From contig DASZWM010000004.1 in NCBI GenBank assembly GCA_035546615.1, forward strand, positions 1 through 11,143: a stretch of DNA of 11,143 nucleotides, written 5' to 3'. The notes beneath the pieces are model-generated. The model was not told the DNA's origin. It did no database searches and saw only the letters and a program-made list of their open reading frames with translations. Each line of letters starts with the position of its first letter. Positions within the stretch are counted from its first letter, which is position 1. Position numbers and translations under genes: made by a program. This DNA is from Minisyncoccota bacterium. GTDB taxonomy: Bacteria; Patescibacteriota; Minisyncoccia; Phycocordibacterales; SBAW01. Positions 1-11,143 of the stretch are shown here, piece by piece.

Positions 1-188
<188 letters not shown>

Positions 189-405
189 CCTTTACAGAGG
201 GAGAGAATCCTTGGGAATCGCAATAATCTGTTGTTCTTTCTTTACCTGGCAGCGCGCTTCGTTGTCGAACTGCGCTTCAAAACGCTCGCCGTACTCAAGT
301 ACGTCTCGCGCCCTGAAGCTTGTTCTCCTAGAATCGCATCTGCCATGAAAAGAAATCTTGTTTTACCTGCGTTTGTGAGTTTCGTTGAGGAGGAGAAAGA
401 AAAAA

Positions 406-648
406 ATGGCAAAATTTGTCATCAGGTACGTTGTGTTCTTCAAATCGCTCTCGAACCGTGGCAGGACCAACCTGCGTCCGGGGAAATCTGTCCGTCCTGT
501 TGCCGCTACTTTTGATGCTTCGGATCTCGAAGCCGGAAAGATTGAAGCGGCTCGGCGATGGGGGGAGTTGAAACAAAAATGGGGAGACGAAATTGAGTTT
601 CGAAACCTCGAACAAGTAGCCCTGGTGGACTGGCGTCCTCAAGGATAA
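406..648 (+). CDS. Hypothetical small protein (80 aa) encoded inside the 23S-5S intergenic spacer
   Basis: ATG at 406 is preceded by a strong SD (GAGGAGGAG, 9-17 nt upstream). The open frame runs to TAA 646-648 (MAKFVIRYVVFFKSLSNRGRTNLRPGK...). A longer version from ATG 385 is possible. No recognisable family. The location is unusual, so confidence in real coding is only moderate. Confidence 0.4.
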   Translation: MAKFVIRYVVFFKSLSNRGRTNLRPGKSVRPVAATFDASDLEAGKIEAARRWGELKQKWGDEIEFRNLEQVALVDWRPQG

Positions 649-652
649 GACA

Positions 653-695
653 AGTCAAGCACGATTGAGAAGTTGGGCACACTTCTCGCTTGACT
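653..695 (+). other. Nested RNA stem-loop in the 23S-5S spacer (candidate processing stem)
   Basis: The outer 8-bp helix AGTCAAGC (653-660) pairs with GCTTGACT (688-695). The inner 7-bp helix GAGAAGT (667-673) pairs with ACTTCTC (681-687) around a 7-nt loop. There is no downstream T-run, so it is not a classical terminator. Confidence 0.35.
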
Positions 696-730
696 CCTCA
701 ATGAAGCTCGCAAATCGATTAAGTTTTTTG

Positions 731-847
731 TCTTGGTGGCTCAACGGTGGGGTCACACCCGTTCTCATTCCGAACACGGAAGTTAAGCCTACTAGTGGCG
801 ATGGTAGTCAGGGTCACACCTGGCGAGAGTAGCTAGCCGCCGGGACA
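731..847 (+). rRNA. rrf: 5S rRNA
   Basis: The ~117-nt element contains the 5S loop motifs CCGTTCTCATTCCGAACACGGAAGTTAAGC, GCGATGGTAGT and GGCGAGAGTAG. Terminal helix I is formed by CTTGGTGGC pairing with GCCGCCGGG. Confidence 0.85.
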
Positions 848-873
848 AAGAACTGAATCTACACAGCATAGCC

Positions 874-894
874 CGCGCCGTGTGCGCGTTTTTT
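874..894 (+). terminator. Rho-independent terminator candidate after 5S
   Basis: A GC-only 5-bp stem, CGCGC (874-878) pairing with GCGCG (884-888), encloses a 5-nt loop and is followed by TTTTTT (889-894). Confidence 0.45.
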
Positions 895-915
895 CGTATG
901 CGATACAATATATAG

Positions 916-1668
916 ATGGCACTCTCCTGGAGCGATCGCAGAAAGACTCTTTACTACGCGGTCGCGGGCGTTATCGCCCTCCTTGTATTAGGAACCGTGT
1001 GGCGTGTCTTTTTCGTCCATACGCCGACCTGTTTTGATGGCGTGCGGAACGGGCTCGAGCTCGGCATCGACTGCGGCGGCGCGTGCAGCCTTATTTGCAC
1101 CGACCAGGCAAAGGCGCCTACGGTCTTGTGGGCACGCAGCTTCGAGATAGCGTCAAGCACCTACACCGCAGCCGCATACATACAAAACCCCAACAGCGGC
1201 GCCGGCGCGCGGGCGGCGCGATACTCCTTCCAGCTTTTTGATGACAAGAACATCCTCGTCGTCGCGAAGGACGGCGTGGTGGATCTCCCGCCGGTGCGTA
1301 CTATCCCTATCATTGAGGCAGGCATCGACGTGGGCCACCGCACGGTGGCACGCACACTCTTTTCTTTCTCCGCGCTTCCAGCCTGGGATACGGTCACTGC
1401 CCCCATTCCCGTACTTCATCTGACCCAGCAGAACCTGAGCCAGGACGCCTCGCGGCTTTCGGCGAACGTGGTCAACGACTCCGCGCAGGATGCAGAGCGT
1501 GTCGTAATCGCGGTGGTGCTGTTTGACGGGTCGGGCGTCGCACGCGCGGCGTCCAAGACCACTATTGCCTCGCTTCCGCGCAAGGCGTCCAAACCCATCG
1601 TCTTTACCTGGCCCGGCGGAGTACCGGGCATCGTACGCGCCGAGATGACGATATTGCCCGCATTCTAA
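916..1668 (+). CDS. Hypothetical membrane-anchored protein (250 aa) with one N-terminal TM helix, then a CX13CX3CX3C cluster and an extracytoplasmic domain
   Basis: Long ORF with GC-rich codon usage matching its neighbours. A hydrophobic segment spans residues 13-34. It ends 9 nt before the SEDS gene. No family was recognised by eye, and no SXXK motif is present, so it is not a bPBP. Confidence 0.6.
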   Translation: MALSWSDRRKTLYYAVAGVIALLVLGTVWRVFFVHTPTCFDGVRNGLELGIDCGGACSLICTDQAKAPTVLWARSFEIASSTYTAAAYIQNPNSGAGARAARYSFQLFDDKNILVVAKDGVVDLPPVRTIPIIEAGIDVGHRTVARTLFSFSALPAWDTVTAPIPVLHLTQQNLSQDASRLSANVVNDSAQDAERVVIAVVLFDGSGVARAASKTTIASLPRKASKPIVFTWPGGVPGIVRAEMTILPAF

Positions 1669-3815: not shown

Positions 3816-3848
3816 TTGAATATCTCAATACTTGTTGTACTATAGTAT
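3816..3848. promoter_or_regulatory. Divergent promoter region: perfect 10-bp palindrome TACTATAGTA (3838-3847) gives a TATAGT -10 hexamer on both strands; candidate -35 TTGAAT (3816-3821) for the + strand
   Basis: TATAGT at 3841-3846 lies 10 nt upstream of ATG 3857. The same hexamer reads on the - strand (complement of 3839-3844) toward the GT4 start at 3800. The -35 spacing is 19 nt, which is suboptimal. Confidence 0.3.
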
Positions 3849-3856
3849 CACCGTAT

Positions 3857-5212
3857 ATGGCAACCGCCTTTCGCCCCCGGACGCTCGTACTTTTCCTGGG
3901 GGACATACTCTTCTTCGCTTTCGCCCTTTGGCTTTCGCTCTATCTGCGCGCCTTCAGCGTCCCGGACCGCGACCTCTTCCTGTCCCACTTGCAGCCCTTC
4001 CTGCTTCTCTTTGCGGCGTGGGCAATCGTCTTCTTCATAGCGGGACTCTATGAGAGCCGCTCCATAATCCTCGCGCGCCGCGCGCTTTCGATGACGCTCC
4101 TGGTGGCGCAGACGTTCAATATAATCCTCGCGGCGCTCTTCTTTTTTGTCCTGCCGCTTTCTATTTTCGGCATTGCCCCCAAGGTCCTGCTTGCCATTTA
4201 TCTCCCGGTTTCTTTTGCGCTGGTGCTGGTGTGGCGCGTTGCTTTGTATCCCTGGCTTGGCTTCCAGAAGCCCGAGCAGGCGATAGCGGTTGGTTCGCGC
4301 CCGGAAGTGGCCGAGCTGGTGCATGCGCTCGACAATGCGCCGAATGCGCCAACCCGCGTGGCGGTGCATCTGGATCCTGCGAGCCCATCCGTCGTCGAGG
4401 ATATCAAGGTCGCTATTGCGCAATACAGGGCGAAGTTCGTCATCGCCGACTTCAACGACCCGCGCGTGGCTGCCGCATTCCCCGATATGTATAACTTCCT
4501 TTCGGTAGGCATCCGTTTCTTCGACGCGATGATGCTGTACGAGGAGGTGTTCGGCCGCATTCCGCTTTCCATCATCGACGAGCGCTGGCTTGCGCGGAAT
4601 GTCTCGCGCTACTCCAAGACCTGGTACGACCCGCTCAAGCGGTTTATGGATATACTCATCGGAGTGGCGGGAGGGATCATCTCGCTAGTGTTCTATCCTT
4701 TTATCATCCTCGCCATTAAGCTTGATGACGGAGGACCTCTATTTGTCTCTTTGCCGCGTATCGGTCAGGGCGGCAAAGTTATTCATATCCACAAATTTCG
4801 CAGCATGACCGGCAATGACGCGGGCGATTATGGAGCGGGTGGAACTACTAAGCTGGCCGTTACGCAGGTAGGCAAGATTCTTCGAAAAACCAGTCTCGAT
4901 GAGATACCGCAATTTTTAAATGTCCTTTTCGGGGAGCTTTCCCTTATCGGGCCTCGTCCGGAATCGCCTTCGCTCGTGGAGTTGTACGGCAAAGAGATAC
5001 CCTATTATCAAGCCCGTCATTTAATAAAGCCGGGCATTTCCGGATGGGCGCAGATCTATCAAGCCAACGATCCGCACCACGGCGCGGAAGTAGAAGCGAC
5101 GCGCGAGAAGCTTTCGTACGACCTCTACTACCTCAAGCACCGCTCGCTCATGCTGGATCTGGTTATCGCGCTCAAGACGGTAAAGAAACTTCTTATACGT
5201 AGCGGGATATAA
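3857..5212 (+). CDS. Polyprenyl-phosphate sugar phosphotransferase (WbaP/CpsE/WcaJ 'bacterial sugar transferase' family), 451 aa
   Basis: An N-terminal multi-TM region is followed by a C-terminal catalytic domain. That domain carries the family hallmarks KRFMDILIG..., [27 protein letters not shown] and [10 protein letters not shown]. Confidence 0.85.
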
Positions 5213-5220
5213 TCAGTCGC

Positions 5221-10063: not shown

Positions 10064-10290
10064 GTAATTGAACGTTAGAGGAGGATCACACCGATCTTCT
10101 GCATCTGAGTACAAGGATGCAGGAGGTCAGCAAGCAAAAGAAGTCCTTCCAATATAATTCCACTGGGAGGCAAACAAGGGAGAAGCCCTGTCCTTATTTA
10201 ATTGAAAAATTGAACTGGATAGAAATATTTTTTCTCTTGTTCCGTTCATCGAGTCAAAGGAACGAATGTAAAAGTTCGTCTCTTATAATT

Positions 10291-11143
<853 letters not shown>

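Follow-up and report, generated by a model that had tools for sequence, protein, structure and literature searches.

What fills the 23S-5S spacer of a bacterium when this spacer is far longer than usual and contains an open reading frame (ORF)? The question was raised by contig DASZWM010000004.1, a complete contig of 11,143 nt (hereafter the window) from a Candidatus Paceibacterota metagenome-assembled genome (MAG) belonging to the candidate phyla radiation (CPR). According to the Rfam boundaries, the spacer covers positions 192-731 and measures 540 nt, compared with 94 nt in one E. coli record and 72-190 nt in five syntenic relatives, which bears out the oversized spacer (about 540 nt) reported in an earlier note on this DNA. 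That note proposed three readings of the spacer and of its 80-codon ORF (406-648): a protein translated from the pre-rRNA spacer, a remnant of an inserted element, or a structured non-coding spacer with a fortuitous ORF. We conclude that positions 371-715 are probably an intact, laterally acquired hairpin cassette of the intervening-sequence (IVS) type which carries a real gene; it would be transcribed together with the rRNA, cut free by RNase III and then translated. The first reading is essentially right as far as a gene in the spacer is concerned, its translation being a likely further step. The second holds for the insertion, which relatives lack, and fails for the word remnant because the cassette is intact. 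These two readings describe one thing. All features of the window mentioned below lie on the + strand.

The segment 371-715 of the window is an inserted element, sporadic among relatives. Relatives were collected using as synteny anchor the 250-aa gene located just downstream of the 5S rRNA gene, and those recovered share the gene order 5S, 250-aa gene, FtsW, GT4 glycosyltransferase and sugar transferase. Their 23S-5S spacers measured 72 nt (L004), 73 nt (L220), 80 nt (L218), 106 nt (L219) and 190 nt (L002), and the cassette arms were found nowhere in the sampled DNA of these five syntenic relatives. The 345 nt of the cassette have no counterpart in L002 and L004, to whose short spacers both flanks align; this absence, together with the aligned flanks, identifies the segment as an insertion. 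No target-site duplication was visible at the junctions (…acctgc on the left, cgattaag… on the right). The spacer gave no Rfam family match, the sole hit being a chance snoRNA (E = 0.14), and no match to the group I intron model (Intron_gpI) was obtained in window 185-735 even at E ≤ 1.

Folding and repeat searches showed that a helix of 22 bp, absent from the earlier note, brackets the whole ORF. It is formed by a 5' arm at 371-392 (GTTTGTGAGTTTCGTTGAGGAG) and a 3' arm at 693-715 (CTCCTCAATGAAGCTCGCAAAT), and the inner UUGAGGA of the 5' arm is invariant in 14 of the 14 distinct copies described below. The stem-loop that had been noticed behind the ORF proved real: it occupies 653-693, starts 4 nt after the stop codon and consists of 7 + 7 bp with a 6-nt bulge. 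Its base, GTCAAGC…GCTTGAC, is conserved and covarying, carries the inner 7-bp stem and is stacked directly on the 3' arm.

The ATG ORF of 80 codons at 406-648 was present as previously described and is annotated by NCBI as hypothetical protein VHD55_02075. It codes for a basic protein of 80 aa (pI 10.1). The window sequence alone is insufficient to settle whether this ORF is a gene. Its length was ruled out as evidence: when the spacer was shuffled with its dinucleotide composition preserved, an ATG ORF of 80 codons or more turned up in 22% of the shuffles, and two further ORFs of at least 87 aa overlap the spacer in other frames. The GC content of the ORF (0.51) resembles that of rRNA, the genes being at about 0.6, and its codon-usage score is higher than those of its own off-frames. 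The third reading, in which the spacer is a structured processing region without coding function and the ORF is fortuitous, could draw on the shuffles and overlapping ORFs, on the strong folding of the spacer region (z = -4.2) and on a word-indexed search of 5.8 billion proteins in which the query itself was the sole match.

The homology search of the 80-aa product suggested by the earlier note spoke against such an ORF. An exhaustive HMMER search (phmmer) of 1.84 billion cluster representatives returned four full-length homologues of 81-88 aa (E = 5e-10 to 2e-5), which are 37-46% identical to the window protein from end to end and stem from separate projects, with samples at JGI and ENA; a profile search added no member to these five. 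An 1826-aa repeat protein, P0125, also matched (E = 6.5e-6, six stretches) and was treated as a compositional match and not as a family member. The five proteins share 16 invariant columns at 37-54% pairwise identity, and their alignment spans the first residue (M-x-K-[YF]-V-x-[RH]-Y-V-x-F) to the C-terminus (E-F-R-x-L-…-W-x-P), favouring the ATG at 406 as start over the TTG at 385.

In the codon alignment of the five members, identity at codon positions 1, 2 and 3 was 0.55, 0.60 and 0.35. The comparison of synonymous and non-synonymous changes, which the earlier note had also suggested, gave a proportion of synonymous differences (pS) of 0.64-0.94, which is saturated, against a proportion of non-synonymous differences (pN) of 0.32-0.46, with pN lower than pS in all ten pairs of the family. 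Such a three-base periodicity is not producible by RNA structure, and random third positions beside conserved first and second ones are not explicable by its conservation; the protein is under purifying selection. Full-length homologues with conserved start, stop and Shine-Dalgarno (SD) sequence, together with the codon-position pattern, lead us to reject the fortuitous ORF, which the confident AlphaFold2 model described below also contradicts and which we now regard as hardly credible. ORF 406-648 is a real gene of a family under purifying selection.

The gene is tied exclusively to insertions associated with rRNA genes, all four homologues being located inside 23S rRNA genes. Two of them (P0123 and P0124) occupy the tip of the hairpin flanked by CCGAAGCUGCGG and GGUAGGAGAGCG, corresponding to E. 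coli 23S 1165-1186, helix 45, whose tip is the classical IVS site. In the three relatives of the window that cover it, helix 45 is a plain hairpin of about 28 nt. The other two (P0122 and P0126) lie in an insertion after …ACCGU and before CGUGAGACAG, a site that we take to be position 2593 in E. coli numbering. In this insertion the cassette stem prolongs a GGG/CCC stem immediately before the …GUAGAGACUGA… core sequence, and the cassette appears to occupy a P6-like peripheral stem of a group I intron. L013 and L006 carry it as a passenger of an intron-like insertion with weak group I intron hits. Position 2593 is among those whose CPR insertions mostly encode LAGLIDADG_1, in the range of group I intron sites (PMC11270868). 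We also observed that the L013 23S rRNA gene contains a second insertion of 817 nt (~806-1622) in the sarcin-ricin-loop region, encoding a LAGLIDADG endonuclease (ORF 967-1449), that L009 contains a GIY-YIG ORF, and that L007 has a group I intron and a LAGLIDADG ORF downstream of the cassette.

The five gene-bearing copies have the same layout without exception: an outer stem, a single-stranded stretch with the SD sequence, the ORF, and a GYCAARY…RYUUGRC hairpin abutting the 3' arm. The outer stem is about 21 bp long, with an invariant inner part (5'-UUGAGGA / UCCUCAA-3') and a variable outer part, and the 21-bp stem was closed in the fold of every copy. The scaffold is effectively one continuous helix of about 28 bp which the cargo leaves at a fixed point. 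To take a census of such scaffolds, the motif GYTTGRCTCCTCAAYRAAR, a 19-mer with five degenerate positions, was scanned in genomes, metagenomes and viral contigs. The matches were mostly chance ones, as expected for the pattern, and were filtered by arm pairing, with 20-21 of 21 arm positions paired in true copies and at most 18 of 21 in chance hits. The census yielded at least about 11 additional distinct copies, in Paceibacterota, Yonathbacteria and Liptonbacteria MAGs and in metagenome contigs, with interiors of copies ranging from 134 to 349 nt. Most of the copies among the matches listed are at helix 45, between CCGAAGCUGCGG and GGUAGGAGAGCG (L017, L007, L019, L038, L044, L112, L127, L130, L183, L193 and L100).

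The RNA covariation analysis, likewise proposed beforehand, was performed on a 60-column scaffold alignment of 14 distinct copies. Standard pairs were present in 99.5% of the cells, compared with 33-42% when the partners were slid; 14 of the 28 pairs showed double-sided changes, and none of 500 shuffles reached the covariation score. The scaffold is conserved and covaries, and these compensatory changes indicate selection on the hairpin, as RNA or as single-stranded DNA, and not on protein-bound DNA termini.

The cargo differs from copy to copy. Four copies have no ORF (L130, L038, L044 and L183), two carry unrelated ORFs (L112 and L100), L127 has a 67-aa truncated relative of the family (hhalign 85%, E = 6e-6; hmmsearch E = 1e-5), L193 has an SD sequence and a hydrophobic peptide of about 30 aa, and L019 and L018 contain tRNA-like genes, in a helix-45 cassette and outside rRNA, respectively. 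The 88-aa ORF of L100 was considered as a family member, and its relation was not significant. The ORF-less cargos showed no trace of the 80-aa protein in any frame, the truncated L127 homologue being the one exception among the copies, so that these copies hold a different cargo and not a decayed gene. The earlier note had reasoned that homologous spacers keeping the hairpins with a broken ORF would point to a structured spacer without a gene. Asked in the same spirit of the scaffold copies, the comparison gave another result: scaffolds lacking the ORF exist, and their cargo is unrelated, not decayed.

Three of these copies deserve description. The minimal helix-45 cassette of L193 (675-852, 178 nt) contains AAAGGAGG followed by a hydrophobic-peptide ORF of about 30 codons (MSDRVKVAIIVLFVGGLIVTPTILRYFGV), which brings to mind small membrane or toxin peptides. 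In L019 (Candidatus Paceibacterota MAG JBBDJW010000013.1, 728-1081), the scaffold lies at the 23S helix-45 site and encloses a tRNA-Pro(UGG) at 818-894, detected by ARAGORN and Rfam (59.6 bits); behind this gene comes another tRNA-like stretch, which has CCA at its end. It would be uncommon for a helix of 23S rRNA to house a tRNA gene. In L018 (Liptonbacteria MHLB01000061.1, + strand, ~169-548; also L093 and L116), a scaffold copy lies outside detected rRNA genes, in a stretch that also bears tRNA genes, and encloses a tRNA-like sequence on the minus strand (445-521) with an odd anticodon loop. The position of the L018 copy outside rRNA means that the cassette is not restricted to rRNA genes.

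The scaffold might instead be a lineage-specific rRNA expansion kept in mature ribosomes, the protein being a ribosome-associated or assembly protein with its dosage tied to rRNA synthesis and the spacer copy a displaced duplicate. We hold this to be improbable, as the scaffold is also found at places that contribute nothing to mature rRNA (a spacer, a tRNA locus and the stem of an intron), its cargo ranges from nothing at all to tRNAs, helix 45 is short and plain in close relatives, and the fold matches of the protein were at noise level.

The initiation signal of the ORF had been presented as the strongest SD sequence of the window. The 9-mer GAGGAGGAG at 387-395 is indeed a single exact copy in the window; its first half, GAGGAG (387-392), is the invariant scaffold arm, paired with CUCCUC and retained also in scaffold copies without ORF or with tRNA cargo. 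The true SD sequence, read from the sequences of the family, is GGAGA at 392-396, which lies 9 nt upstream of the ATG and overlaps the stem arm at its end; it is the counterpart of the (A)GGAGAG found as a separate element 5-8 nt before the ATG in the four other members. A purine-rich (A)GGAGA(G) is thus present 5-9 nt upstream of the ATG in all five family copies. Plain GGAGG occurs in the window at chance frequency (22 observed, 22.9 expected). The statement that bona fide genes of the window mostly have no SD sequence was accurate, as none of the 10 real genes carries an SD-like motif within 25 nt upstream of its start. The genes starting at 916, 3857 and 5221 have, a few bases before the ATG, TATAAT-like boxes (GATACAATATATAG-ATG, TACTATAGTATCACCGTAT-ATG and GGGATATAATCAGTCGC-ATG; 891-915, 3832-3856 and 5196-5220) and no SD sequence, which suggests that leaderless mRNAs may be common in this organism. 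Three GGAGG, one of them inside GAGGAGGAT, are clustered at 10078-10170 in the leader upstream of the 16S rRNA.

With respect to expression, no sigma-70-like promoter was found in window 1-1000, and none belonging to the ORF itself; the only well-placed terminator-like site in the terminator scan, a GC hairpin with a T-run at 874-895 (hairpin 874-888), comes directly after the 5S rRNA gene. The ORF is therefore placed within the 23S-5S transcription unit. The cassette would be transcribed as part of the pre-rRNA from the rRNA promoter, and RNase III would cut the 22-bp stem, as it does in classical IVSs. A cut at this place should be harmless, because the precursor is cleaved in the spacer anyway, and may assist in parting the 23S precursor from that of the 5S. 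An RNA of about 300 nt would be set free and could be translated from its own SD sequence.

Several points weigh against this scheme. Transcription, RNase III cleavage and translation are all steps that we infer. With five clusters the family is tiny, so that the signal of selection comes from a small number of comparisons, which are saturated. Arm pairing and the 3' motif partly determined which copies entered the covariation analysis; this choice biases least the outer ten base pairs, of which 10/10 covary. Searches of NCBIfam, PHROGs, PADLOC and PDB sequence profiles with the protein gave no match, and its fold matches were weak, at noise level. The stem ties up the first half of the SD string. 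The codon-usage score of the ORF is -0.07, against +0.18 to +0.55 in host genes, and its GC content at third codon positions (GC3) is 0.51, against 0.53-0.82; with such atypical values, the ORF could have arrived recently, its expression in this host being not yet begun or already lost. Finally, the ORF of the Coxiella IVS, which has a poor SD sequence and is decaying, is apparently not translated (PMC4990558).

The strongest competitor built on these points is a silent passenger, namely a real cassette with a once-working gene which in this host is transcribed, clipped out and degraded, its ORF being intact only through recency; the same has been proposed for the Coxiella IVS and its S23p ORF. 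The atypical codon usage and GC3, the partial burial of the SD sequence, and the absence of the cassette from the five relatives, which makes the insertion young, are all in its favour, as is the Coxiella precedent of a labile IVS RNA with an apparently untranslated ORF (PMC4990558). On the other side, the window copy has an unbroken frame, a GGAGA correctly spaced from the ATG and all 16 invariant residues (the last by construction, since it is part of the alignment), and family-wide purifying selection means that the gene is expressed in at least some hosts. We judge a silent passenger unlikely, though a more serious possibility than a mature-rRNA expansion, and retain a functional cassette as the probable explanation.

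What the protein does was approached through its predicted structure and composition. The AlphaFold2 model, built on the five-sequence alignment, was compact (predicted local distance difference test, pLDDT, of 85) with a beta-beta-alpha-beta order: strands E2-13 and E27-38 form a beta-hairpin with a disordered basic, Arg/Lys-rich loop, followed by a long helix H41-62 and strand E63-71. Four of the five members have a pI of about 10, and the N-terminal half contains 7-9 Lys/Arg against 2 Asp/Glu. No Pfam family was matched by the window protein at E ≤ 10, and none that was relevant by the five members. The family contains no conserved Cys or His, and E64 is its only invariant acidic residue, which makes a nuclease role improbable; the 80-aa protein is probably not a nuclease. 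Our best guess is that it binds nucleic acid, either the invariant stem core of the cassette or rRNA, and the choice of the stem core as its ligand is speculation.

The remaining features of the window place the cassette in its context. The contig begins within the 23S rRNA gene, whose 3' end (1-191) corresponds to positions 2721-2925 of the Rfam LSU model. The spacer contains, outside the cassette, a hairpin domain of about 120 nt at 237-355 (arms 237-252/340-355; inner arms 274-295/298-319), with a nearly base-for-base match in L002 alone of the relatives and absent from L004; this domain is a separate, older expansion of the spacer. The 5S rRNA gene (732-845) has an extended flanking stem, 717-741/835-859, so that the whole feature covers 717-859 (Rfam and repeat/fold search). 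Rfam also detected the 5' part of the 16S rRNA at 10284-11143. The rRNA genes are hence unlinked and unusually ordered: 23S-5S come first, the 16S follows on the same strand, and the roughly 9.4 kb between them hold protein genes that include FtsW, glycosyltransferases, FolD and SecDF. Many relatives' contigs are also about 10-12 kb long, which fits a conserved synteny and assembly breaks at rRNA genes.

IVS elements have been known for more than 30 years, and their origin, their mobility and the role of their ORFs are still open. The ORF-bearing 23S IVSs of Coxiella, Leptospira, Brucella and Xanthomonas encode S23p (Pfam 23S_rRNA_IVP, PF05635). The cassette resembles them in being an element of a few hundred nucleotides with complementary termini that form a stem of about 20-28 bp round an ORF, in lying within an rRNA transcription unit, in its sporadic presence among relatives and in having homologous copies at the same helix-45 site. 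It differs in its protein, which is unrelated (no Pfam match at E ≤ 10) and has a beta-beta-alpha-beta AlphaFold2 model, whereas S23p is a four-helix bundle, and in its scaffold, which has an invariant sequence core, a fixed cargo position and alternative cargos. The window copy has the long enclosing stem and the sporadic presence of an IVS, but it lies in the 23S-5S spacer and not at the tip of helix 25 or 45, and therefore fails the strict positional definition. The Coxiella helix-45 IVS contains an ORF and is closed by a terminal stem of 28 bp, in the middle of which RNase III cuts (PMC4990558). Whereas that ORF is decaying behind a poor SD sequence, the ORF of the cassette is under purifying selection and its SD sequence is strong and conserved.

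Other known elements share part of these properties. The ORF-less helix-25 and helix-45 IVSs of Salmonella and other Enterobacteriaceae are, like the helix-45 copies of the cassette, stem-loops at the tip of the helix with presumed removal by RNase III, and the minimal copies L130 and L193 (176-178 nt) come close to them; the same likeness extends to short insertions in CPR 23S genes. For the latter, non-intron insertions at 23IS2 and 23IS4 were suspected to be of the IVS type (PMC11270868). Elements of this kind are described as short and non-coding, whereas the window cassette carries a conserved gene. With the homing-endonuclease genes of CPR group I introns (LAGLIDADG, GIY-YIG), the cassette has in common an ORF module that occupies, inside rRNA genes, a peripheral stem of some structured RNA, and in L013 and L006 it sits in the P6-like stem at the 2593 site, next to LAGLIDADG-bearing insertions. 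Unlike them, the 80-aa protein has no endonuclease domain (Pfam, NCBIfam) or catalytic motif, and the cassette brings its own hairpin scaffold and lives outside introns too. An analogy, and only that, can be drawn with miniature inverted-repeat transposable elements and other hairpin-ended cassettes, which are also small, have terminal inverted repeats, lack an internal transposase and occupy unrelated sites; the cassette appears to differ, no target-site duplication being visible at its junctions and no target sequence being shared.

Searches of the literature brought up no earlier case of a conserved gene located in the 23S-5S spacer of a bacterium. The survey of CPR rRNA insertions annotated insertion ORFs solely via Pfam domains, and the word spacer is absent from its main text (PMC11270868). 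A family without Pfam domain is missed by such domain-based surveys, and the present one adds a family that they would overlook. More tentatively, the helix of about 28 bp (UUGAGGA^GYCAA…UUGRC-UCCUCAA, with its fixed cargo port) may define an undescribed modular cassette system of Paceibacteria-type CPR. Such a system would load small cargos (at least 2-3 unrelated ORF types, a hydrophobic peptide of about 30 aa, tRNA genes), move among 23S helix 45, an intron P6-like stem, tRNA loci and rRNA spacers, and be expressed via rRNA-operon transcription and RNase III, with the 80-aa protein as a sequence-specific binding or mobility factor or as a new ribosome-associated protein; this is a possibility that we put forward with clear reserve.

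The element is of the IVS type; its location is new, as is its cargo gene, which is under selection, and its scaffold is modular and conserved. Its presence in the window means that rRNA spacers, besides rRNA genes, are colonised by such elements. While the studied Coxiella S23p looks dead, the gene embedded here is under selection and has kept a strong ribosome-binding site, which the genes of its hosts do not have. A scaffold found at several unrelated sites with interchangeable cargo offers a testable system for element mobility, for protein expression from pre-rRNA and for recognition of the stem core.
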